DNA of 61,477 nt from positions 1 through 61,477 of the forward strand of contig JBFHVQ010000006.1 of the NCBI GenBank assembly GCA_041589455.1. The letters are read 5' to 3'. The notes under the pieces were generated by a model. It made no database searches. It saw only the letters and a list, made by a program, of their open reading frames with translations, and was not told the DNA's origin. Made by a program: the position numbers and the translations under genes. Positions within the stretch are counted from its first letter, which is position 1, and each line of letters begins with the position of its first letter. Positions 22,228-57,264 of this stretch are shown piece by piece. This stretch comes from Gammaproteobacteria bacterium. Lineage in GTDB: Bacteria > Pseudomonadota > Gammaproteobacteria > SZUA-229.

Positions 22228-23406
22228 TCACTGCCCATCAAGGAACACCACGTTTGCTGCTTCAACAACTGGCTCATTGATGGCAATAATTTTTGCTTTA
22301 TCAAACAGATTAAATTCTGTTGAAGTAGCAGATGTATATGCCCCCATCTGATGCCCCACTAATAGATCACCAATACTTAGTGGCGGTATACTGATATTTT
22401 CAGCAATTACATCAATGCTGTCACAGGTTGGTCCTGCGAGTACGGCTGTTTCGTTTTTATCCATATCGCTAAATAATGTTAGTGGATAACTCGCATGATC
22501 AAACAATTGCCCAGAGTATGAGCCATAAACACCGTCATCCAGATAATACCAGGTCGTGTCACCACGCTTTGCCTTACCCATTACCGTTGAGATAGAAACC
22601 ATTGAGGGTGCAGAAATAAAGCGCCCGGGCTCTGCAATAACACGAATGTGATCAGGTAACTGCTGTAGTGCCGTTCTAATCGGCGCACAGAAAGCTTCGA
22701 TTTCCATCACCGACGCCTGGTATTGCACCGGGAAACCACCACCGATATCCAGTATCGATAATAGCTTGCCACACTCATCCTGCACCTGTTCAATTATCTG
22801 CACACACTGTTGTACAGCATGCACATGATTACGCGAGTCTGGGCACTGTGAGCCTGCATGAAATGACAGTCCTTTCACGTGGAGACCGAGTTGCTGCGCT
22901 TTCTGAATAAGCAATGTGACTTCATCTGCGCGGCAACCAAACTTACGCGACAGATCAATAGGTGTATCTGGATTTGGAAAGCTGACTCGCACGAGCAATC
23001 CAACACGATGCCGATAATCGATAAATTTCTCCAGCTCCCAGACATTATCGACAACAAAAGTTGTACAACCAAAGCGTAAGGCATCACGAATATCTTTATC
23101 GCGTTTAATGGGATGAGTATGAATCGTATTACGCGCACTCACTTTCTGCGCACGCAGTAGCTCGACCTCTCCGCTGGTGGCAATATCAAAGCCCGAACCC
23201 AGTGCATTCAGGGTTTTGATTACAGATGGATGTGGTAAGGATTTAATCGCATAAAATAATCCAACACCAGGTAAAGCCTGGCTCAATGCCTGATACTGGG
23301 CTGTCACTTTGTCACAGTCGAGTACCAACAATGGTGAACCATACTGTTGTACCAGTTGCTGATACTCTTTTGCTTTATCTGTGCTTTCAACTGTTATGCG
23401 ATTCAT
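22228..23406 (-). CDS. Fold-III PLP ornithine/lysine decarboxylase
   Basis: YAIKS (PLP Lys), HAGSQ, DIGGGF, EPGRF, GPTCDSID; last gene of the speD-speE operon. Confidence 0.88.
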   Translation of the reverse strand: MNRITVESTDKAKEYQQLVQQYGSPLLVLDCDKVTAQYQALSQALPGVGLFYAIKSLPHPSVIKTLNALGSGFDIATSGEVELLRAQKVSARNTIHTHPIKRDKDIRDALRFGCTTFVVDNVWELEKFIDYRHRVGLLVRVSFPNPDTPIDLSRKFGCRADEVTLLIQKAQQLGLHVKGLSFHAGSQCPDSRNHVHAVQQCVQIIEQVQDECGKLLSILDIGGGFPVQYQASVMEIEAFCAPIRTALQQLPDHIRVIAEPGRFISAPSMVSISTVMGKAKRGDTTWYYLDDGVYGSYSGQLFDHASYPLTLFSDMDKNETAVLAGPTCDSIDVIAENISIPPLSIGDLLVGHQMGAYTSATSTEFNLFDKAKIIAINEPVVEAANVVFLDGQ

Positions 23407-23411
23407 GGCAT

Positions 23412-24263
23412 TTATCCTGCTGAGAGGGCGTCCACAATATACTGAGGCAAGGCGAAACTGGCCACATGTATTGCCGGATTATAATAACGTGTTTTAATAG
23501 CTGCCGCATTAAAGCGCTGTGTTATCAGATCAACACTTAAATCACGATATTCCGTATTTTGTGTGGCCCATGCAAAGGTCATTATGCCACCAATATAGGT
23601 CGGCACCGCAGCACTGTAAAATGACTGATCAGAAAAATATGTCTGCATGCGCTTTGCCGTGGTGGTGACTTCATCCAGTTGCATAAACGCCACACCATTC
23701 TGCGTTACCAGAATACCGTCTTCATTCAGGCAATTTTTACAATTTTCATAAAAATCTGATGTAAATAATACATCACCAGGACCAATGGGATCGGTGCTAT
23801 CTGAAATGATGACATCAAACTTCTCACTACACTCACGTACAAAATTAGCACCATCATCAATAACTATATTTACCCGCGAATCATCATAGGCACCGGCACT
23901 GTGATTTGGCAGAAACTCTTTACACATTTCGACCACCTGGTCATCAATTTCAACCTGGGTAATATGCTCTACCATTGCATGCTTACATACTTCACGCAGC
24001 ATGCCACCGTCACCACCACCAATAATTAGTACACGTTTAACATTCCCATGTGCCAGTAGCGGCACATGAGTTAACATTTCATGATAGATGAATTCATCGG
24101 CTTCTGTAGTCTGAATAATGCCATCCAGTGCCATCACTCGTCCAAACTTGGCATTTTCAAAAATCACCAGATGCTGATGCTCGGTTTTATTTTCGAAATA
24201 GACCTTGTCTACTGAAAATTCCTGACCGTAGGCATCATATAGCGTTTCAGTGTAGGTTTTCAT
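23412..24263 (-). CDS. speE: Spermidine synthase (polyamine aminopropyltransferase)
   Basis: [28 protein letters not shown]. Confidence 0.95.
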
Positions 24264-24778
24264 TTCTGTACCCGGCCACGCAACTCTTCTGTGACTTCTA
24301 ATCGATGCGGGAAGAATGCACGCTTTAATACTGGCACAGCATTTTCAGGCTCTGCATCGCCACACATAAACACATCGAACGCTGCATAGTCGCGCTCAGG
24401 CCAGGTATGCACACTGATATGTGATTCAGCAAGTACTGCCACACCTGAAATACCGCCACTTGGCGTAAAGTGATGCAGGTGAATATGAAGTAGTGTAGCG
24501 CCACATTTTTCGACGATTTCGCGCATCGCCTTTTCCATGCGATCGAGGTCATCCAGGTGACTCGCCCCCCATAGATCTAGCAGCAGGTGTGTGCCGGCAA
24601 ATTCAACGCCGTTACGCTGAATAAAGTGGTCTTTGGCTTCAACCAGATCAACAGAGTTCTGATCATTGGATGCCGTATTTTGTTGGGCCGCCAGTACGTC
24701 AACCGAGTTGTCGTTCCAACGGCCCACTTCCGCGGTGGGATCTTCCAGTTCCACCTCAACAGGTGCAGCTATATGCAT
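24260..24778 (-). CDS. speD: S-adenosylmethionine decarboxylase proenzyme (short class 1B type)
   Basis: [13 protein letters not shown] self-cleavage site, DVFMCG; overlaps the speE start; GAGGAG RBS. Confidence 0.93.
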
Positions 24779-47088: not shown

Positions 47089-47173
47089 TAATATCCCCAG
47101 TTAGCCCCAATTCGGGACTATTTTGACTTATAATATGCCGCCTTTAGCGACACTGAATACTGCAATATTGTAC

Positions 47174-48370
47174 ATGAACTCTGATCTGAATCGACTACAG
47201 CCCTACCCGTTCGAGAAGCTGGCACAGCTAAAAGCCGCGGTTACGCCTGATGAGGCATTAGCTCACATTGCCCTGTCCATTGGCGAACCCAAGCACACGC
47301 CTCCGGCTTTTGTACTGGATGAGCTGGCGCAGGCACTGCCTAAAATAGCCAGTTACCCGCTAACCAAAGGCACTCTGGAGCTACGTCAGGCCATTGCCAA
47401 CTGGCTTAGCAATCGCTTCAGGCTACCTGAGGGCAGCCTGGATGCTGAGCAGCATATCCTGCCGGTGAACGGCACTCGCGAAGCACTATTTGCTTTTGCA
47501 CAGGCCATGGTCAACCGTGTCGATGATGCACTGGTATGCATGCCAAACCCGTTTTATCAGATATATGAAGGTGCGGCGTTTCTTGCCGGAGCAGCCCCCT
47601 ACTTCTATAACACTACACGGGATACCGACTACCTGCCAGACTTCGAGTCGATTAGCGATGACACCTGGAAACGTTGTCAGTTAATTTATATCTGTACACC
47701 GGGTAACCCCACAGGTGCTGTGATATCCAAACAGCAGATGCAATGGCTGATTAACAAGGCCGAAGAATTTGATTTCATTATTGCCTCAGATGAATGCTAC
47801 TCTGAAATTTATTTCGATGATGAAAAGCCACCTTGTGGTCTACTGGAAGCGGCTGCCGAAATGGGCAACACCGATTACAAACGTTGTGTCGTTTTCCATA
47901 GCCTGTCGAAGCGCTCCAACTTACCGGGTTTGCGTTCAGGCTTTGTCGCTGGCGACGCAGATATCATGCAGGCGTTTTTAAAATATCGGACCTATCATGG
48001 CTGCGCGATGTCTGGTCATCATCAACATGCCAGCATTATTGCCTGGAATGATGAACAGCATGTGATTGAGAATCGCACCCTGTATCGACAGAAGTTTAAT
48101 ACTGTACTGGAAATTCTTTCACCACATATGGACGTTAAACTGCCAGATGCAGGATTTTATCTGTGGCCACAAACACCCATTGCCGATACCGACTTTGCAC
48201 AACAGCTGTTTGCACAGAAAAACATTACCGCATTACCCGGGCAATACCTGTCTCGTGAGGTGAATGGTATTAACCCCGGCGCAAACCATATTCGTATGGC
48301 TCTGGTGGCCACCCTTGAGGAAACCACCGAAGCTGCTGAACGAATCAGAGATTTTATACAAACGCTTTAG
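47174..48370 (+). CDS. dapC: N-succinyldiaminopimelate aminotransferase
   Basis: LQPYPFEKL, SDECYSE, SLSKRSNLPGLRSG; precedes dapD; start set at ATG 47174. Confidence 0.92.
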   Translation: MNSDLNRLQPYPFEKLAQLKAAVTPDEALAHIALSIGEPKHTPPAFVLDELAQALPKIASYPLTKGTLELRQAIANWLSNRFRLPEGSLDAEQHILPVNGTREALFAFAQAMVNRVDDALVCMPNPFYQIYEGAAFLAGAAPYFYNTTRDTDYLPDFESISDDTWKRCQLIYICTPGNPTGAVISKQQMQWLINKAEEFDFIIASDECYSEIYFDDEKPPCGLLEAAAEMGNTDYKRCVVFHSLSKRSNLPGLRSGFVAGDADIMQAFLKYRTYHGCAMSGHHQHASIIAWNDEQHVIENRTLYRQKFNTVLEILSPHMDVKLPDAGFYLWPQTPIADTDFAQQLFAQKNITALPGQYLSREVNGINPGANHIRMALVATLEETTEAAERIRDFIQTL

Positions 48371-48412: not shown

Positions 48413-49237
48413 ATGAGCGATTTACAAACAGTCATCGAAGAAGCCTTTGAACGACGCGCAGACATTACGCCACGTAATGTAGAAACCCACGTACGTGAAG
48501 CCGTAGAAGAAGCCATTGCTATGCTGGATTCAGGCCAGGCACGTGTTGCTGAAAAAACCTCTGGCGACTGGGTTGTTAATGAATGGTTAAAAAAAGCGGT
48601 ACTGCTGTCTTTCCGCATTAACGACAATGAATTTATCAAGGGTGGTTTCACTAACTACTACGATAAAGTGGAATCTAAATTTGCTGATTACAACACCCGC
48701 GACTTCCGTGAGTCTGGTGTGCGTGTTGTTCCACCAGCAACTGCACGTAAAGGTTCTTACATTGCACCTAGCGTTGTTATGATGCCATCTTATGTAAACA
48801 TTGGTGCATATGTTGATAGCGGCACCATGGTTGATACCTGGGCGACTGTTGGCTCATGTGCACAAATTGGTAAAAACGTTCACCTTTCAGGCGGCGTTGG
48901 TATCGGTGGTGTTTTAGAACCCTTACAGGCAGCGCCAACCATTATCGAAGACAACTGCTTTATCGGCGCACGTTCCGAAGTGGTTGAAGGCGTTATCGTT
49001 GAAGAAGGCTCGGTTATTTCAATGGGTGTTTACATTGGCCAGAGCACTAAAATCTTTAACCGTATGACTGGTGAAATCACTTACGGCCGTATTCCCAAAG
49101 GCTCTGTGGTTGTATCAGGTAACCTGCCATCGAAAGACGGTACTTACAGCCTGTACTGTGCAGTCATTGTTAAGCAGGTTGATGAGAAGACTTTAGGCAA
49201 GGTAGGTATTAACGAATTACTTCGTGATATCGACTAA
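48413..49237 (+). CDS. dapD: Tetrahydrodipicolinate N-succinyltransferase
   Basis: [23 protein letters not shown], hexapeptide repeats. Confidence 0.97.
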
Positions 49238-49256
49238 TCGCTAACAGCAATTCTCC

Positions 49257-49351
49257 GCAAATGCACGCTATTAATCGCAAATTAATAATGGGGATCAGGT
49301 TTTCGCCTTCAACGCAAAACCTGCCATTTAGCGATTAATGCGTGCATATGC
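49257..49351. repeat. Long imperfect inverted repeat (~95 nt)
   Basis: ATGCACGC/GCGTGCAT, ATTAATCGC/GCGATTAAT, AATGG/CCATT and CAGGTTTT/AAAACCTG nest into one hairpin. Confidence 0.75.
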
Positions 49352-49378
49352 AGTCTCAGATTTTTATAACCATCCATT

Positions 49379-49558
49379 ATGAATAAACTCACCGGTAAAC
49401 GATTTATTATTAGTGGCATGACCATTTAAATCGTTTCAGACATGGTTGATAACTGGGAAACGAAAAATATCACGACCCATGAAACCATCCTGATGAAAAA
49501 GTCTGTTCTTGAGAGTACGATTAGACTGGATAAGGCAGAAGAGATCACGCATACATAA
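49379..49558 (+). pseudogene. Small protein gene interrupted by an in-frame TAA
   Basis: MNKLTGKRFIISGMTI*IVSDMVDNWETKNITTHETILMKKSVLESTIRLDKAEEITHT*; single stop at 49427-29. Confidence 0.5.
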
Positions 49559-49892
49559 TTTATTAATAACCAGATTCACACTTCACTCAGCCAGGTACCC
49601 AGGCTTACGCTATGCCATATGCTAATTAAATTAGTTAGCCAATAAAAGGATTACCTGCAGCACTTATTTGTCTATCGATAGATATATTCGTTACCTGCTT
49701 AAGCTGTAAATCATAATAATGCTATTAGGTGTCGGTAACCATTTATTTTCGGCAACATACACAAAGGGAACTGACCTCATTATTCGCTTTCTCATAGGTG
49801 ATGGCATGATAATACTGTTTTATTTCATACAAATTAATTTGATGTGAAAACATTAGTCAGTTATATCTAAAGATATACTATCCACTTTTGGG

Positions 49893-50438
49893 TTATGTGG
49901 GCTTATCTGAGTTTTTATTTTTAGAATACTCGTATTCCGGATAAATCGCTTTGAGACACTCTGGACAAATTCCATGACTAAACTTGGCTTCTGAATGTGA
50001 ATGAATATATGATTCTATTTGATTCCAGTACCCCTCATCGTCTCTGATTTTTTTGCACGAAGAACAAATAGGAAGTAGCCCTTGCAATGTCTTTAACTCT
50101 TTTTTCGTCTCCTGAATTATCTTTATTGAGAGTAGAGCTGTGACCCATATTGCAAATAATGCTAACGCACGATTCATAATAACTTTCCAATGCTCGCCAC
50201 CTTCAGGAGACAAAAAATAACCAAGAATCGTCAATAATGAACAGAATATTGCAGAATAAATTGTAAATTTAATACTCTCAGACTTTAACGAAACAAGAAT
50301 CACGAGAATATAAGGAACACCTCCTGCCACACCAAGTGGAATCATCATATCAATAGTAAATATAATGGCACTGATAACCAGGCACACAAGAGCACAAACA
50401 GGTAAAGAATGACAGTACAATAGCTTATCCGGCGCCAT
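49893..50438 (-). CDS. Membrane protein with a C-terminal 4-Cys (LPICxxCK...HGICPxC) domain
   Basis: About 4 TMs (GVAGGVPY...NRALALFAIW) joined directly to LLPICSSCKKIRDDEGYW...FSHGICPEC. Confidence 0.8.
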   Translation of the reverse strand: MAPDKLLYCHSLPVCALVCLVISAIIFTIDMMIPLGVAGGVPYILVILVSLKSESIKFTIYSAIFCSLLTILGYFLSPEGGEHWKVIMNRALALFAIWVTALLSIKIIQETKKELKTLQGLLPICSSCKKIRDDEGYWNQIESYIHSHSEAKFSHGICPECLKAIYPEYEYSKNKNSDKPT

Positions 50439-51637
50439 ATTAAATAAGCCCTGTTTTCTGGTGATTGATAAAACACATACAAATTAATTAGACGCAATTA
50501 TTAAATCTGTCAATATCATATACATACAATCATAAACTGCCATAGACAGGAACGATTAGATGCGATTGATTAAATAAATAGACTTGACACATAGTAATAC
50601 GAACAATTCCAACTTGTCGGCACCCGTTTAATACTTTACTAAACGCATATATCGTGCATCTCTCAATAAATAAATTGAATCAGACTTCTGAATATTAAGT
50701 TTGCATACTACTCAGATCAAAGTATAGTTTAGCGGATGAAGCCATGAAACAAACCTGCTCATTCCTGATAATATCTCAGCATGCTTTTTACAGGTTTTCG
50801 CAGCTTCAGTAGCCTTGCCTTTGTTTCAGCATTCGGAGCGAATCCGATATAAAACCTCTACTTCCAGGCCTTAATGATATCCTGATGAAAAAACCGCTAT
50901 TCCTTTGAATTGTTCATCAGATTTAAGCAAAATATTCCACAAGCAATAGCCATATTCAGCGTACAGACTGTGGCTATAGACACATGTCACTCTGCCAACC
51001 AACTTCATGATTTAGCGAATCACCTGAGCTGACTCAGCTGGATCAAAGCTGTAGTACCTCTTACACAGTCATAGAGGACACAACCACAAATAAACTTGAT
51101 ATCTGATATATCAGCAACTTGCAGACTAATACTCATCTTCTTGCTGTTTATTATTTCAAGTTTAGTGCTACATAAACAATTTCTGCTAGCCTAATAACAA
51201 AAATAGATCGTTACAATTAGCTTTATGAATTAAACGCCTAAAAACAGAACTCATAATATTGAAAAGTGTGATTTTCAACCGCACTCTTTGCGGCTTTAAA
51301 CACACGAATAATCGCAAATCATAAATTTATAGCTCTTTTATCCTGCTTCAGGATAACGCTATCGATGTAATAAGCAACCGCAAAATCTATTCCAAGTATT
51401 TGTATTTATACAACTTATTGAACAAACACAAAGATCATAATTTTCTACCTATACATTATATATATGTATTCCAGACTCACCAGGGTAAAAAGCATGTGAA
51501 TATTTTTTTGATAAACCTTATTGCTCATGACGCACTCTGGTTGTATAAACCACAAAAAATTCTGTAAGGATTTTGAACAGCTAGCGATAGCTATTGATAA
51601 CCAAGCTAAACACCTTCTGGTATGGAGAAGATAGTCA

Positions 51638-52120
51638 ATGAAAATATACCCAACTCACTATGGCAATAACCCATTATTCCCAAACATGGATGACTTTGAA
51701 GTCGTTATGAAAAATGACCAGTCTGGTCTGGGCGTGATTAGCTATAGATCATTTAGTAAGGGTGAGTTGATTGCACACATCACGGGTGAATTCATTAGAG
51801 ACATACGTCAACATAGCTTACAGATTGATGCAGAGAAACATCTATATGACACCTACTTCTCAGGTTACTTTCTTCATTCTTGCGAACCTAATATTTCACT
51901 GGACATGAAAAGCCTGACTGTCCATGCAGTTAAAGACATTGAGGCTTATGAGTTTCTTTATATGGACTACTCAGAGACAGAAGAAAAGCTGTTCAAGCAG
52001 TTTGCATGTAACTGTTGTTCGCCCTTATGCCGTGGCTGGATAACTGGACATAACGAATCCATTGATTTCGCTAGCACTGAATACCAGAACTTCAGAATGC
52101 TGAGTAAAATTGCGATATGA
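51638..52120 (+). CDS. SET-domain SAM-dependent methyltransferase with post-SET Zn site
   Basis: GLGV, YFLHSCEPN, EFLYMDY, post-SET CNCCSPLCRG; GGAG RBS. Confidence 0.88.
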   Translation: MKIYPTHYGNNPLFPNMDDFEVVMKNDQSGLGVISYRSFSKGELIAHITGEFIRDIRQHSLQIDAEKHLYDTYFSGYFLHSCEPNISLDMKSLTVHAVKDIEAYEFLYMDYSETEEKLFKQFACNCCSPLCRGWITGHNESIDFASTEYQNFRMLSKIAI

Positions 52121-53331
52121 CACATTCCAGTATTGCTAGCTGGTGGCATCGTCAAGACCTTTGTTACATAGATAATACACTACAGTTTGCTGCTCGGCAG
52201 GTGACCGAGCTGGCAAGCCAGTTTGCGACGCCAGCGTTTTACTATAATGCAAACCGCGTGACTGAAAAATTAAGTGATCTCCATGCAGCTCTGGAAAGCG
52301 CAGGATTTAGCGGACGTTTTAAAATCCACTATGCGATGAAAGCTAACCGCTTTGCCCCATTGTTAACGCATATGAAACAAACGGGCCTGTGCGGTATCGA
52401 CGCCTGCTCACCAGCAGAAGTTGAACATGCAATCAGCTGTGGATTTGCGCCATCGGATATCTCCTTTACCGCGACCAGTCTTTCCAGGACCGACCTGCAA
52501 CAGCTAAGCCAACTCAAGGACGTGTTTATTAACTGTGACTCGCTACACACCATCCGTAATATTGGAAAATTATGTCCAGGGCGCAATATTGGTATCAGGG
52601 TAAATCCAGAAATCGGTATTGGCTATGCCGATAATGAGAAGCTCCGTTATAGCAGTAAGGCCAGTACTAAATTTGGTATCTATAGAGAACAGTTCCAGGA
52701 TGCGATTGAGCTAGCCAGACAGTATGATTTGAAGATCACTAAAATACACTTCCATACTGGTTGTGGTTACCTGACTCAACAACTGGAACAATGGGACAAT
52801 ATCATCGAGGCCTGCTCCTGGTTTATTAAACAGATTGATACCATTACCGCTGTTAATGTTGGTGGAGGACTGGGGGTTCCACATACTGAATCGGACATCC
52901 CACTCGACCTTTCTATCTGGGCTGGGATCCTGGCTAAACATTTTGGCGATACGACATTTAATATTGAAATTGAGCCAGGTGATTATCTGGTCAAGGACTC
53001 TGGCATACTGCTACTGACAGTTAACTCTGTTGAGACAAAAAAGAGTACCTTATTTGTAGGTGTAGATGCTGGCTTTAATATCGCTGTTGAGCCAGCGGTA
53101 TATGGCCTGCCATTTTTACCGGTGCCAGTTAAGCTTAAACCGGGCAAAATGCAGACCTTAACGCTGGTTGGTAATATTAATGAGGCTCTGGATATATGGT
53201 ATCGCGATATAGAGTTACCGCCGGTAGCTGAAGACGATGTCATTGCCTTAATCAATGCAGGTGCTTATTCGTCATCTATGTCATCCAACCATTGTATGCG
53301 TGGCAAGTTTAAGGAGTTTTTACTCTTTTAA
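52117..53331 (+). CDS. Fold-III PLP decarboxylase, LysA-like but atypical
   Basis: YAMKAN (PLP Lys), KFG, HFHTG, NVGGG, EPG, AGAYSSSM; ATGA overlap with the SET gene. Confidence 0.85.
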   Translation: MTHSSIASWWHRQDLCYIDNTLQFAARQVTELASQFATPAFYYNANRVTEKLSDLHAALESAGFSGRFKIHYAMKANRFAPLLTHMKQTGLCGIDACSPAEVEHAISCGFAPSDISFTATSLSRTDLQQLSQLKDVFINCDSLHTIRNIGKLCPGRNIGIRVNPEIGIGYADNEKLRYSSKASTKFGIYREQFQDAIELARQYDLKITKIHFHTGCGYLTQQLEQWDNIIEACSWFIKQIDTITAVNVGGGLGVPHTESDIPLDLSIWAGILAKHFGDTTFNIEIEPGDYLVKDSGILLLTVNSVETKKSTLFVGVDAGFNIAVEPAVYGLPFLPVPVKLKPGKMQTLTLVGNINEALDIWYRDIELPPVAEDDVIALINAGAYSSSMSSNHCMRGKFKEFLLF

Positions 53332-53365
53332 TCAGTGAACCCTGTCAGATATAGGTGTCTGATTT

Positions 53366-53977
53366 TTACGCACCTATATCTATCCTTCCCATGAACAGGA
53401 TCTTTGCAGAAGCAATTCTTTCATAAAGCTTTAATTTCCTGATATGCGGTGGCCAGTTAATTAGAAAGGTCGCCATGGCATTCCATAATGACACCCAGGC
53501 TGCAATTGTCGTACCTTCTGAAAAAACATGACCCATCACTGTCTCAGTCATGGTTTCATATTGATTAAGCCATAACGAGACTAACAACATAAATACACCA
53601 ATCAAAAGCAATATCAGTGAACTCTGTTTCATACCTAGCCATTTACGCGACTCAAGACCATGTCGATATCTAAAATAATTATCAATGCTTGCTGTTAGCC
53701 GAACCTGTAAGTCCGCACTGGGTAAATCCCTGAGAGCAAACTGAATAACAAATTTCTCATTGCCAATTTCACTAATTGATTCCGTAATATAATCAACAAT
53801 ATCCTGGTCCAGTTCTTTTTTACTGTATGGCGTACAACGATCAAAGTCATTATATAGATCGGAGACTTTATCCACACTTATTACCAGTATGAGTTCACCA
53901 GCATCATTACGTTCATAACGTTCAAGTATCTCTTTTTTCATAATTCCACATATAATAGAAACAATCATTCCTGACAT
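53366..53977 (-). CDS. Hypothetical membrane protein
   Basis: Soluble N-terminal domain (DLYNDFD...ELDQDIVDYI) plus two TMs (EGTTIAAWVSLW). Start may be 53941. Confidence 0.7.
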   Translation of the reverse strand: MSGMIVSIICGIMKKEILERYERNDAGELILVISVDKVSDLYNDFDRCTPYSKKELDQDIVDYITESISEIGNEKFVIQFALRDLPSADLQVRLTASIDNYFRYRHGLESRKWLGMKQSSLILLLIGVFMLLVSLWLNQYETMTETVMGHVFSEGTTIAAWVSLWNAMATFLINWPPHIRKLKLYERIASAKILFMGRIDIGA

Positions 53978-54450
53978 ATATATCGCCTAACCACTAATTA
54001 CAATAGTCTGGATATATATTTTCGATCTTAAAAAAACATCAATTTTGATGCGATAAAGACCCGTTTAACCATTCAAAAACCGCCTCATATTTTTCTGCTT
54101 ATTGACACCCTGTGCATAAGGCACCTTTAATTAGAGGAGTGCCCTCAACTCAAAGCACGATATACCAGGCGCATCAATCCTCTCAATGGTTAATAAGCAG
54201 GTTTCTGATCAGATGCCCAGAATATGTACACCGGTGATATTCAAGAAAGACATTTATTAACCCTGCTCCATTATCATGATCTTGTTATATATGGATCGAG
54301 AACATCAAATTAATCAAAAAATCAGATCGTGACATGCTGTTTTATTTGCTTTACAGAATTTCATAAATCCAATAAAAATCTTCCGCATCGAGCCAGTCAA
54401 AAGACAATCAGCAACGAAATCACCTCAACATCACTCTGGGAGAACCAATT

Positions 54451-54675
54451 ATGAAATACACGACAACTATGGCATTTATCATGCTCAACATCGCAATATC
54501 AACAAGCCATGCACTTGAAACAGAAGAACAGACTGCCGAACAGGAAATCGTCAGCTACTGCCAGCAGCAGGCCGAGCTAGCTGAAATTCAGCAGCCACAG
54601 GAAAAGGCTTTATATATTGATGACTGTGTGAAGAGCTTCACCTCTCAGTATCAAGTTGAGCCAGTGACTGAATGA
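54451..54675 (+). CDS. Small exported acidic protein with two Cys
   Basis: GGGAG RBS; signal peptide ending SHA; YCQQQA...YIDDC. Confidence 0.65.
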   Translation: MKYTTTMAFIMLNIAISTSHALETEEQTAEQEIVSYCQQQAELAEIQQPQEKALYIDDCVKSFTSQYQVEPVTE

Positions 54676-54682
54676 TTTGAAT

Positions 54683-54794
54683 ATATTATGCGGCATCAGC
54701 TACTTGTTCAAGCCTATCACTAATAGACCTGAACACGCATAATATCTCTCAATAGCCAGCGGGCTCTTACTCCCTGTTTTAGTACGCTGGCTAT
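54683..54794. repeat. Two adjacent inverted repeats
   Basis: ATATTATGCG(54683-92)/CGCATAATAT(54736-45) enclosing TGTTCA/TGAACA; ATAGCCAGCG(54752-61)/CGCTGGCTAT(54785-94). Confidence 0.6.
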
Positions 54795-54969
54795 ATCCCA
54801 TCATAAGCTTCAGCAATATCACACTAGCCCTGTTATTCTCAACGCATAGTTTGAGGCTCTCATATCACAGTTTGTAGATTACTTGATACTACTATCGATC
54901 ACCTTCTCTGCGAGATGATTTTATTGACGATTAATTAAGGTTATCATAGATCCAACAAGCACTTACTGA

Positions 54970-57264
54970 ATGTTATCTATGGGCACTACAATTTTTAATG
55001 CACTGAAAACAATTATACAGGCCGTTAACGACGCATCAGATTTGACGGAGGCGTTAAATATTGTTGTGCAAGCGACACGTAAGGCGCTTAAAGCTGACGT
55101 AGTATCAGTGTATTACCGTGAAATCCAGTCAGGTGAACTAATTCTAATGGCAACTGACGGCCTCAATGCCAACGCGATAGGAAAAATTCGTTTCCCACCG
55201 AACAAGGGTCTGGTAAGTCTGGTAATGAATCAGGCTGAACCCATTAATATCGCAGATGCGCATGTACACCCTAATTACTGCTACGTCCAGGAGACTGACG
55301 AAATATCTTTTCATGGTTTTCTTGGTATCCCGATTATTCATCAACGTCAAACATTAGGCGTGTTGGTCGTCAGACACAAACAGAAGAAGCGCTTTTCATC
55401 CGCACAAGAGACCTTTCTCATCACACTGGCGGCTCAACTGGCTGGCGCCATCTCTTATGCATCACAGAAAGGTGAACTAAGTCACTGGCTCTCAAGTGTC
55501 GAAGGACAGTCATTCTCTATGCAGGGTTTAAGTGGTTCCCCGGGCTATGCAATTGCCAGTGCGCACATTGTTATTGCGACGGCTAATCTCGATGCTGTTC
55601 CAGACAGCAACATATCAAACACACAGATTGAGAGTGAAATAAAATCTCTGGAACATGCAATAACACAGGTTGAACTTGAGTATAGACAGTTATCTGAACG
55701 CATGTCAGACGTCCTGCCAAAAGAAGAACTGGCGCTATTCGAGGTATTCATTTTGATGCTTCGAAGCGAATCACTAATAGATAGTATTAAAAATAGAATT
55801 CATGCCGGACAGTGGGCACAGGCAGCCTTAAGGGACACCATAGCCGAGCACGTTAAACAGTTTGAACAGATGGAAGATGCCTATTTCCGTGAACGGGCTG
55901 TCGATATAAAAGACCTTGGCCGGCGCATACTTCTACACCTGCAAATGCAGCAGCCGAGCGTAAATAGTATTAGCGAGCCAGTTATCCTGGCAGGTGAAGA
56001 GGTCTATGTCTCACACCTCTCAGATATACCCGTTCATTTACTCGCAGGGATTGTTGCTATGCGCGGAGCAACGTCCTCGCATATAGCTATACTGGCCAGG
56101 GCGCTTGGTATCCCCTGTATAATGGGTGTCGATAATTTACCCTTACAGCGCATCAAAGGTGAAACACTGTTACTTGATGGCTATAGTGGCCAGTTATTTA
56201 TCAGGCCTTCACATCAGATTCATCAGGAATATCTGCAACTCATTGATGCCGATAAAAAACTGAATGAGAATCTTAATAAACTGATTAACAAACCCTCACA
56301 TACACTGGATGATGTTCATATACCACTGTATGTCAACACAGGACTATTATCAGACATCGGCCCATCACTCAAAAGTGGCGCTGAAGGCGTTGGTCTATAT
56401 CGCACTGAAATTCCATTCCTGCTCCACGATGGGTTTCCCAGTGAAGATGAACAGGTAAAAATTTATCAGCAGGTACTCAAAAGCTTTAGCCCTCGGCCTG
56501 TAACCTTTCGGACACTGGATATTGGTGGTGATAAATCACTCCCCTACTTTCCAATTACGGAAGACAATCCATTTCTTGGGTGGCGCGGTATTCGTATTAT
56601 GCTGGATCATCCTGAGATTTTTATCACCCAGATCAGAGCCATACTTCGAGCTAACCTGACTACCAGTAACCTGAAGCTGATGTTACCCATGATCAGCGAC
56701 ATTTCTGAAGTTGATACCACACTGGAACTGATCAGAAAGTCATATGATGAACTATCAGAAGACTTCAAGGACCTGCCTTATCCAGAAATTGGCATCATGA
56801 TTGAAGTCCCCTCCGCGATATATCAAATACCGGCCATTGCAAAACGTGTCGATTTTTTTTCAATTGGTAGCAATGACCTGACTCAATATTTACTGGCTGT
56901 CGACAGAAACAACAAACAGGTTGCTGATCTTTATAACAGCCTGCACCCTTCCGTTCTCATGGCGATCAAACAGATAGTTGATCAGGCACATCAATATAAC
57001 AAGCCCGTCAGTGTTTGCGGCGAAATGGCGGGCGACCCTGTTTCAGCGCTCGCATTACTGGGACTTAACGTGGATAGCATGAGTATGAGTGCCAGCAGCT
57101 TACTGAAAGTTAAAAGCCTGATACGTTCATTTAGCAGGCAACAAGCCAATGAGCTTAGTTTACAGGCACTAAAGATGGAGTCTAGCCAGCAGATACAGAA
57201 ATTATTTAATGACGCAATTATCAGTGCGGGCCACGGAGATCTGGTTCACAACCACAACCGCTAA
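54970..57264 (+). CDS. ptsP: Enzyme I-Ntr (GAF plus PEP-protein phosphotransferase)
   Basis: N-terminal GAF; SHIAILAR phospho-His; GVGLYRTE; SIGSNDLTQY; VCGEMA. Confidence 0.95.
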   Translation: MLSMGTTIFNALKTIIQAVNDASDLTEALNIVVQATRKALKADVVSVYYREIQSGELILMATDGLNANAIGKIRFPPNKGLVSLVMNQAEPINIADAHVHPNYCYVQETDEISFHGFLGIPIIHQRQTLGVLVVRHKQKKRFSSAQETFLITLAAQLAGAISYASQKGELSHWLSSVEGQSFSMQGLSGSPGYAIASAHIVIATANLDAVPDSNISNTQIESEIKSLEHAITQVELEYRQLSERMSDVLPKEELALFEVFILMLRSESLIDSIKNRIHAGQWAQAALRDTIAEHVKQFEQMEDAYFRERAVDIKDLGRRILLHLQMQQPSVNSISEPVILAGEEVYVSHLSDIPVHLLAGIVAMRGATSSHIAILARALGIPCIMGVDNLPLQRIKGETLLLDGYSGQLFIRPSHQIHQEYLQLIDADKKLNENLNKLINKPSHTLDDVHIPLYVNTGLLSDIGPSLKSGAEGVGLYRTEIPFLLHDGFPSEDEQVKIYQQVLKSFSPRPVTFRTLDIGGDKSLPYFPITEDNPFLGWRGIRIMLDHPEIFITQIRAILRANLTTSNLKLMLPMISDISEVDTTLELIRKSYDELSEDFKDLPYPEIGIMIEVPSAIYQIPAIAKRVDFFSIGSNDLTQYLLAVDRNNKQVADLYNSLHPSVLMAIKQIVDQAHQYNKPVSVCGEMAGDPVSALALLGLNVDSMSMSASSLLKVKSLIRSFSRQQANELSLQALKMESSQQIQKLFNDAIISAGHGDLVHNHNR

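Follow-up and report, generated by a model that had tools for sequence, protein, structure and literature searches.

Overlapping burB-like and burI-like genes form a recurrent two-gene cassette with a predicted role in S-methylmethionine and DMSP-amine synthesis

The window analysed here is a stretch of 61,477 nucleotides from a gammaproteobacterium of the SZUA-229 lineage (assembly GCA_041589455.1, contig JBFHVQ010000006.1), and the system of interest is a pair of genes on its forward strand which encode a small SET-domain protein and a pyridoxal phosphate (PLP) dependent enzyme of fold type III (Table 1). A first-pass annotation of this DNA had described a two-gene unit with an ATGA overlap, consisting of a minimal SET protein and a fold-III PLP enzyme, and all of these points were borne out. 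The product of gene 1 scored 29.7 bits against the Pfam SET model (cut-off 22.4), no other Pfam domain was found in it, and its translation holds every motif that had been named (G30-x-G32, L79-HSCEPN-85, E105-xxxx-D110-Y111 and the post-SET cysteines C124, C126 and C131). The product of gene 2 was found to carry the Pfam domains Orn_Arg_deC_N (112.6 bits) and Orn_DAP_Arg_deC (48.6 bits). In the source annotation the two are named 'SET domain-containing protein-lysine N-methyltransferase' and 'diaminopimelate decarboxylase', which would make the first a protein lysine methyltransferase, perhaps modifying its neighbour, and the second an additional LysA. These names, however, derive from domain-level models, and the comparisons of both proteins given below make such a reading extremely improbable.

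Relatives of the SET protein were recovered at E <= 0.001 for 280 of 287 candidates, and the 119 matches listed (own protein excluded) share 56-74% identity with the query. In the zinc site, the cysteines C82, C124, C126 and C131 were observed to be invariant in all 24 aligned family members. The profile of this family matched the structures of BurB (PDB 9l4t and 9l4v) with an E-value of 3.3e-46, ungapped over profile positions 7-146, while the next SET structure in the same search was found at 5.4e-11. An AlphaFold2 model of the protein (mean predicted local distance difference test score 77, low only in the post-SET loop) likewise gave BurB as its best Foldseek match, with a template modelling (TM) score of 0.76-0.82, 38-40% identity and an E-value of 2e-15, followed by ASH1L at 1.5e-7 and 20% identity. 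A hand count on the profile alignment placed identical residues at 56 of 133 positions, to be compared with the 38-40% of Foldseek. The match to BurB is thus far better than that to any histone methyltransferase. The protein was also found to be 46% identical to the SET gene product of a bur-type cluster in Eleftheria terrae. According to the excerpted texts of PMC12542666 and PMC7496086, BurB is a SET enzyme of Burkholderia thailandensis which methylates the sulfur of free methionine in vitro to form S-methylmethionine (SMM), and 4-methylthio-2-hydroxybutyrate (MTHB) and methylmercaptopropionate (MMPA) are reported there not to be substrates.

The SET-domain protein lysine methyltransferases (MLL, ASH1L, NSD, vSET and bacterial members) have the SET fold in common with the window protein, as well as the motifs HSCxPN and DY and a post-SET zinc site (CxCx4C). 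The resemblance is nevertheless much weaker, with about 20% identity and TM scores of 0.45-0.6 as against 38-40% and about 0.8 for BurB, and the window protein, unlike these enzymes, has no peptide-binding partner domain. By these comparisons the protein is placed in a family whose substrate is a free amino acid and not protein, and it is most likely a methionine S-methyltransferase, with the predicted reaction of methionine and S-adenosylmethionine (SAM) to SMM.

The contact residues named for BurB in PMC12542666 align with the window protein at a constant offset of 13. Those kept or conservatively changed (BurB/window) are R70/R57, H72/H59, T73/S60, S88/S75, H93/H80, Y124/Y111 and R133/K120, and those changed are R42/S29, A44/L31, H138/N125, V130/K117 and M132/F119. 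Residues R57, H59, Q62, H68-L69, D71 and T114-E115, which are invariant and specific to the family, are common to BurB in the same alignment. BurB is reported to bind methionine through main-chain atoms (PMC12542666, as excerpted), and a substrate pocket built in this way is not readable from sequence. The same enzyme types might hence act on a methionine analogue such as selenomethionine, ethionine or S-methylcysteine and yield a different onium amine, and the pair's proteins do form a clade distinct from the bur type (45 rows, 99% support in the Shimodaira-Hasegawa-like approximate likelihood ratio test (SH-aLRT) of a quick tree). We regard an analogue as very unlikely: methionine is the abundant physiological substrate, most of the 45 clade-invariant SET columns were seen in BurB as well when compared by hand, and no genomic link to selenium or similar metabolism was found.

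The decarboxylase has 2832 relatives among 7973 candidates, the best of them 76% identical. On the lysA model (TIGR01048) it scored 232.9 bits, below the cut-off of 297.9, whereas the true lysA of the same genome, located on another contig, reached 519.7 bits; the two proteins are only 28% identical. The view of the decarboxylase as atypical in the first-pass annotation held, in that it is not an ordinary LysA. A much closer relative was found on a plasmid of Eleftheria terrae, where a protein 48% identical over 395 residues (E 9e-140) is encoded in a cluster with the order polyketide synthase (PKS), SET protein, TauD-type dioxygenase, aminotransferase, aldehyde dehydrogenase, megasynthase, NAD-binding protein, FkbH, 'diaminopimelate decarboxylase' and AMP-binding enzyme. 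This order appears to correspond to burA to burJ, and we infer from it that the Eleftheria decarboxylase is BurI-like. The motifs EPGD, GNINEALD and SNHC are common to the window and Eleftheria decarboxylases and are absent from LysA.

The residues expected of a PLP enzyme of this fold, namely K75, H213 (stacking), G249-G253, E286 (of EPG) and Y384 (of GAY), were observed to be invariant in 47 of 47 family members. LysA shares this fold, and its PLP-binding residues (lysine, histidine, glycine loop, glutamate and tyrosine) are also the same. The two differ on the distal side of the pocket. Position 289 is aspartate in 37 and glutamate in 10 of the 47 members, where the LysA of the same genome has the arginine of EPGR, and position 325 is always glutamate, where LysA has the arginine of RPxxY. 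Furthermore, asparagine is found at position 355 in every member in place of the cysteine of the LysA motif CE(S/T)GD, while Glu356 is kept. In the diaminopimelate (DAP) decarboxylase of Thermotoga, Arg249 and Arg285 make salt bridges to DAP's distal carboxylate (PMC8277567, as excerpted), and positions 289 and 325 appear to correspond to these two arginines by motif and spacing. Since acidic residues replace both, the pocket would have changed from a carboxylate-binding to a strongly acidic one. Such a pocket suits a cationic group, for example a dimethylsulfonium, and not a carboxylate, so that DAP is predicted to be excluded. The enzyme is likely an SMM decarboxylase which would convert SMM to 3-dimethylsulfoniopropylamine (DMSP-amine) and CO2. 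BurI and the SMM decarboxylase of Streptomyces (SMMDC) are both described as most similar to DAP decarboxylases in the excerpted text of PMC11464771, the paper on the dimethylsulfoniopropionate (DMSP) pathway of Spartina, which also identifies an ornithine-decarboxylase-like (ODC-like) enzyme of plants as an SMM decarboxylase.

A second LysA, or a LysA isozyme, was considered for the window gene and rejected, given the sub-threshold lysA score, the loss of the distal arginines in all 47 members and the presence of the true lysA elsewhere in the genome. In a quick IQ-TREE tree a branch of length 8.8 with 100% support separates LysA from the group of the pair, and a clade of 45 rows with 99% SH-aLRT support excludes the Eleftheria and Sphingomonas sequences; these two and two outgroups lie on long branches, and the parts of the tree relied on here are the LysA split and the 45-row clade only.

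The first-pass annotation had put forward conservation of the pairing as a point to be checked by neighbourhood analysis, and the pairing was found to be strictly conserved. One genome per species was scanned, with the SET-family alignment as the query because a single SET sequence gave no relatives, and the family was recovered in at least 207 species-level genomes of 185,579. In each of the best 80 of the 207 loci, the SET gene is closely followed on its own strand by a gene for a decarboxylase homologue (53-74% identical), with the match cut by a contig end in about ten and partial in one (L039). Clustering of all neighbouring open reading frames (ORFs) gave no third conserved gene, and the commonest other neighbour occurs in 12 of the 80 loci. 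For the 45 pairs in which both genes were found by the ORF caller (starts taken from the longest ORF), the 4-base overlap is present in 15 and the spacing lies between -4 and +9 bases in 39. The pairwise identities of the two proteins are correlated (Mantel r 0.86, none of 999 permutations as high, 47 pairs), a result which mainly shows that both genes travel together, as related sequences are not independent and the test overstates their independence.

By record label the 80 loci comprise 49 Pseudomonadota, 23 Thermodesulfobacteriota (mostly Desulfobulbales), 5 unassigned and one each of Myxococcota, Bdellovibrionota and Planctomycetota, although nearly all are metagenome bins and the single odd labels may be binning errors. 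A BurB-like gene was found in 18 of 201 sampled Desulfobulbales genomes, in 5 of 36 genomes of the window's family (2 of 11 in its genus) and in 4 of 399 other genomes of an even sample of the class, where the decarboxylase is adjacent in three of the four. The standard overlapping pair also occurs on a plasmid of Sphingomonas. In seven Desulfobulbales loci (L053, L055, L058, L062, L063, L075 and L086) the pair is convergent to genes for a saccharopine-dehydrogenase-like protein, a second fold-III decarboxylase and a protein of the arginase/agmatinase family. This group looks like a polyamine operon, but it was seen in one lineage only and may simply reflect shared gene order.

Of 1.84 billion cluster representatives searched, 1387 proteins matched with E <= 0.001, and of these 197 reached 1e-10 or lower and 16 reached 1e-30 or lower. 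Natural fusions of a BurB-like SET domain with a BurI-like decarboxylase were observed among them (P0247 and P0265; P0241 and P0314 are partial). Three other proteins of about 1400-1480 residues (P0243, P0246 and P0254) hold 5-8 matched SET stretches each. We also noticed two variants of the locus. On plasmid p7 of Rhizobium bangladeshense, which carries phage-like genes, a gene for a BurB-like SET protein (39% identical; L097:6001-6870) is followed after 25 bases by a small decarboxylase gene of the pyruvoyl-type AdoMet_dc family, which may be a non-homologous replacement of the SMM decarboxylase. In another genome (G244; L117:7291-9163) the BurB-like gene is present as two fragments with about 1.4 kb between them, followed downstream by an intact decarboxylase gene, and is probably split by an insertion.

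Additional genes of the predicted pathway were found next to related pairs in two genomes of Desulfobulbales. In a Desulforhopalus bin (G063) a stand-alone operon (L111:4301-13704) contains metK and genes for a BurI-like decarboxylase, a BurB-like SET protein, a class-III aminotransferase and an aldehyde dehydrogenase, with a sigma-54 activator gene and the S-adenosylhomocysteine hydrolase gene ahcY beside it. The SET protein and decarboxylase of this operon are 43% and 51% identical to those of the window. The same four-gene core was found in a second genome (G260; L114:5012-9788). Both operons look like a complete DMSP methylation pathway without a PKS. The presence of metK and ahcY together with the aminotransferase and aldehyde dehydrogenase genes therefore links the family with SAM turnover and, away from any PKS cluster, with the later steps to DMSP. 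Both genomes also carry a separate two-gene cassette, and from this coexistence the cassette is a separate and recurrent form.

This context bears on the substrate that the first-pass annotation had proposed, in which the SET protein N-methylates a basic amino acid such as lysine, ornithine, diaminobutyrate or DAP and the decarboxylase turns the product into an N-methylated diamine. Lysine N-methylation is the classical activity of SET enzymes, the decarboxylase's acidic distal pocket would suit a cationic amine, and one natural fusion in reverse order (P0252) joins an ornithine-decarboxylase-like domain, with EPGR and the motif cysteine kept, to a C-terminal BurB-like SET domain. The plant SMM decarboxylase is itself ODC-like (PMC11464771, as excerpted), however, so this fusion does not favour ornithine. 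The SET protein shows 38-40% identity to the methionine-specific BurB and about 20% to lysine methyltransferases, the decarboxylase groups with the bur-cluster enzyme (48%) and related pairs adjoin metK, ahcY and two later DMSP genes. We therefore judge N-methylation very unlikely; the nearest characterised SET relative methylates the sulfur of methionine, and nothing points to lysine, ornithine or DAP as substrates. The broader expectation of small-molecule chemistry fared better, as the SET family includes BurB, which acts on free methionine. The claim that the pathway is undescribed did not stand, since BurB and BurI make up the first two steps of a published DMSP methylation pathway (PMC7496086, as excerpted).

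The two genes are quite probably a self-contained cassette of the burB-burI type, predicted to lead from methionine through SMM to DMSP-amine. In the first step, the SET protein would methylate free L-methionine on its sulfur, with SAM as methyl donor, to give SMM, as expected from its homology. In the second, the fold-III PLP enzyme would decarboxylate SMM to DMSP-amine, as suggested by homology and by the make-up of the active site. The overlapping stop and start codons would couple the translation of the two genes, and decarboxylation would draw flux off SMM. The third and fourth steps, from DMSP-amine through DMSP-aldehyde to DMSP, are not encoded in the cassette. We lean slightly towards general enzymes encoded elsewhere in the genome taking the pathway on to DMSP, whose role would be that of a stress or osmotic solute.

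Several observations weigh against this pathway or against its completion. The identity between the SET protein and BurB is only about 40%, three of the SAM contacts of BurB are lost (R42 to S29, A44 to L31 and H138 to N125) and, because the methionine contacts of BurB are made by the main chain, sequence is not enough to establish the substrate. A basic amino acid or an amine would also fit the decarboxylase's acidic distal pocket. Furthermore, the Eleftheria cluster, taken from a search of plasmid proteins, is a stand-in for B. thailandensis BurI, and its decarboxylase is called BurI-like from gene order only. Genes like burC, burD or burE were not found in any part of the window, nor at any of the 80 loci in the region of about 6 kb around the pair. 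In the window genome, which is 90% complete, the best BurD-like matches are the only class-III aminotransferases, BioA, ArgD and HemL (29-31% identical), the two aldehyde dehydrogenase matches to a BurE-like query (29-30%) are a PutA-type and a generic enzyme, and no copper amine oxidase was found; it does contain one ORF of the flavin amine oxidase family. Four of five other carrier genomes likewise lack close relatives of BurD and BurE (best matches 32-37% and 35-41%), the fifth being the Desulforhopalus bin, in which BurD-like (54%) and BurE-like (56%) genes lie side by side. Finally, lakes or wastewater are the source of some carriers, which include Desulfoprunum benzoelyticum (DSM 28570, locus L054), and an osmolyte function is not evident in such habitats.

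The later steps can be considered in the light of genetic work on B. thailandensis. The excerpted text of PMC7496086 reports that the bur cluster encodes BurI (decarboxylase), BurD (transaminase) and BurE (dehydrogenase), that deletion of burI leads to accumulation of SMM, which makes the evidence for SMM decarboxylation by BurI genetic, and that burD and burE mutants still made the final product, for which its authors suggest that housekeeping enzymes substitute. Since product is formed in these mutants, the absence of burD and burE genes does not show the absence of the steps, and DMSP is a plausible end product of the cassette.

The same two steps might instead end at DMSP-amine or a derivative of it, a dication that would act as the sulfonium analogue of a short polyamine or feed into another product. 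The cassette is strictly of two genes in all 80 loci with no bur-type aminotransferase or aldehyde dehydrogenase nearby, and the window genome and four of five other carriers are without close BurD and BurE relatives. The two genomes with the four-gene operon retain the minimal cassette separately, which hints at a distinct role. In addition, the pair stands beside the saccharopine-dehydrogenase-like, decarboxylase and agmatinase-family group in 7-8 Desulfobulbales loci, a GNAT acetyltransferase gene follows the decarboxylase gene in 6 loci and non-marine carriers occur. On the other side stand the productive burD and burE mutants (PMC7496086, as excerpted), the restriction of the polyamine-type neighbours to one lineage, where they may be plain synteny, and the literature on DMSP-amine together with polyamines, in which only plant papers were found. 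An end at DMSP-amine is a less likely but serious alternative. This compound, a sulfonium dication, is similar to decarboxylated SAM at the aminopropyl end of the latter, and a more specific proposal, which we consider rather unlikely, is that the minimal cassette is a pathway of its own ending in this compound, as a polyamine-like cation, an aminopropyl donor or the precursor of an undescribed sulfonium compound in sediment bacteria including anaerobic sulfate reducers.

Table 1. Features of the burB-like/burI-like gene pair and its immediate surroundings in the window
Feature	Position	Strand	Remarks
burB-like gene, minimal SET-domain protein with post-SET zinc motif	51638..52120	+	160 aa; predicted methionine S-methyltransferase
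burI-like gene, fold-III PLP enzyme	52117..53331	+	404 aa; predicted S-methylmethionine decarboxylase
ATGA, overlap of gene 1 stop and gene 2 start	52117..52120	+	Read from the sequence; would give translational coupling
Shine-Dalgarno-like GGAG	51624..51627	+	Ten bases 5' of the burB-like start ATG; read from the sequence
Low-GC stretch, presumed promoter/regulatory region	50439..51637		1.2 kb, no ORF >55 aa; inside the variable segment
Predicted membrane protein of a family without name, convergent with the pair	53366..53977	-	203 aa; possible optional third component

The pair is located in a variable genome segment of low GC content, and the 1.2-kb stretch upstream of it has a GC fraction of 0.32-0.37 compared with about 0.45 in the flanks. 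An Rfam scan of positions 49000-55000 gave two chance-level matches only and no riboswitch upstream of the pair, and scans for promoter and terminator consensus sites near the pair found them no commoner than in shuffled sequences. The genes dapC (47123-48370) and dapD (48413-49237) lie 2.4 kb upstream, at the distance given in the first-pass annotation; the link to lysine synthesis which had been drawn from this proximity appears incidental. Both genes are kept at 74-81% DNA identity in 11 of 11 genomes of the same genus, while the DNA downstream is not conserved and synteny ends beyond about position 49284 in the 11 genomes compared. A functional link between the pair and dapCD was rejected on these grounds.

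The separate spermidine operon that had been noted in the window is present at 22231-24778 on the minus strand, 28 kb away, and a link to the pair was likewise judged incidental. It encodes SAM decarboxylase (speD), spermidine synthase (speE) and a third LysA-like fold-III decarboxylase, whose lysA score of 192 bits is under the cut-off. This paralogue retains both EPGR and the motif cysteine, lacks the second distal arginine and is probably an amino-acid decarboxylase feeding spermidine synthesis.

Homologues of the convergent 203-aa membrane protein (36-51% identical) directly adjoin the pair in 8 of the 80 related loci, in three arrangements (upstream and divergent, downstream and convergent, or on the same strand). 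It matched no family of Pfam or NCBIfam, and an Atlas search gave unnamed clusters only; it may be an optional partner of the pair, for example an exporter or a sensor. Elsewhere in the low-GC segment, a gene at 49893-50438 on the minus strand encodes a protein of 181 aa that has several predicted membrane helices, a cysteine-rich C-terminal region (CxxC ... CxxC) and no match in Pfam or NCBIfam. The same genome also contains a second small SET-domain ORF (G000:C66:12811-13056, L004; Pfam SET 38.3 bits), which is unrelated to the gene of the pair. Four DNA sequencing runs of one marine-metagenome study contain the stretch, and no RNA run is listed.

The enzymes are assigned by their sequences to the BurB and BurI families, whose chemistry was already known (2020, 2025). 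What appears to be new is a stand-alone two-gene cassette in sediment Gammaproteobacteria and Desulfobulbales, outside Burkholderia. BurB has been described in published accounts as confined to Burkholderia or reported only there, and no close BurB homologues were reported in Tara at E < 1e-40; at least one SET-family cluster in our search has a Tara source (P0091). In the full texts of the open literature (subscription papers and supplements lay outside the search) we found no report of the two-gene cassette in sediment bacteria or Desulfobulbales. NCBIfam has no model for either family, and public annotation of members of the two families includes a Gene Ontology term for lysine biosynthesis. 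For the clade of the pair, the two names given by the source annotation are probably wrong, and marker-gene surveys do not recognise the pair because annotation names its genes a lysine methyltransferase and a DAP decarboxylase.

DMSP is a major sulfur compound of the sea and the precursor of dimethyl sulfide, and surveys of its producers rest on few marker genes. The cassette extends the candidate producers of sulfonium compounds to Desulfobulbales and several gammaproteobacterial lineages of sediments. If it makes DMSP, the sulfate-reducing Desulfobulbales and these lineages would be unrecognised producers in anoxic sediments, whereas if it stops at DMSP-amine, its product would be a sulfonium metabolite without a described bacterial role. 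The global weight is probably modest, because the family is patchy and rare (4 of the 399 genomes in the class sample).

Known routes through the same intermediates differ from the cassette in their enzymes or in their gene arrangement. The DMSP pathway of Spartina (MMT, SDC, DOX and DDH) likewise passes from SMM to DMSP-amine by means of a fold-III PLP enzyme (PMC11464771, as excerpted). Its SDC is ODC-like, its MMT is a large methyltransferase and it uses a copper amine oxidase for DMSP-amine, an enzyme not found in the window genome. The MmtN pathway, represented in Novosphingobium and in Streptomyces mobaraensis (MSMT, SMMDC, DMSPAAT and DMSPADH), has the same proposed intermediates, namely methionine, SMM and DMSP-amine, and Liao and Seebeck reportedly reconstituted a methylation pathway of this type in 2019. 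Its SMMDC is described as related to BurI (48%; PMC7496086, as excerpted), and MmtN as a member of the class-I methyltransferases that is not significantly similar to BurB (PMC12542666, as excerpted). The mmtN genes of group I are clustered with downstream genes of their pathway (PMC9135737), unlike the genes of the window cassette.

The closest known system is the bur (malleicyprol) cluster of B. thailandensis, in which BurB and BurI are the same types of enzyme, a SET methionine S-methyltransferase and a PLP enzyme similar to DAP decarboxylase. In Burkholderia the DMSP made in this way is a polyketide building block (PMC7496086, as excerpted); no such use is evident for the window cassette, which has no PKS, nonribosomal peptide synthetase, burC, burD or burE gene. 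The arrangement differs as well, since the genes for the SET protein and the decarboxylase are adjacent and overlapping in the window, in that order, while six other genes lie between them in the bur-type cluster of Eleftheria. The bur hosts are Burkholderia, whereas the hosts of the cassette are marine or sediment bacteria.

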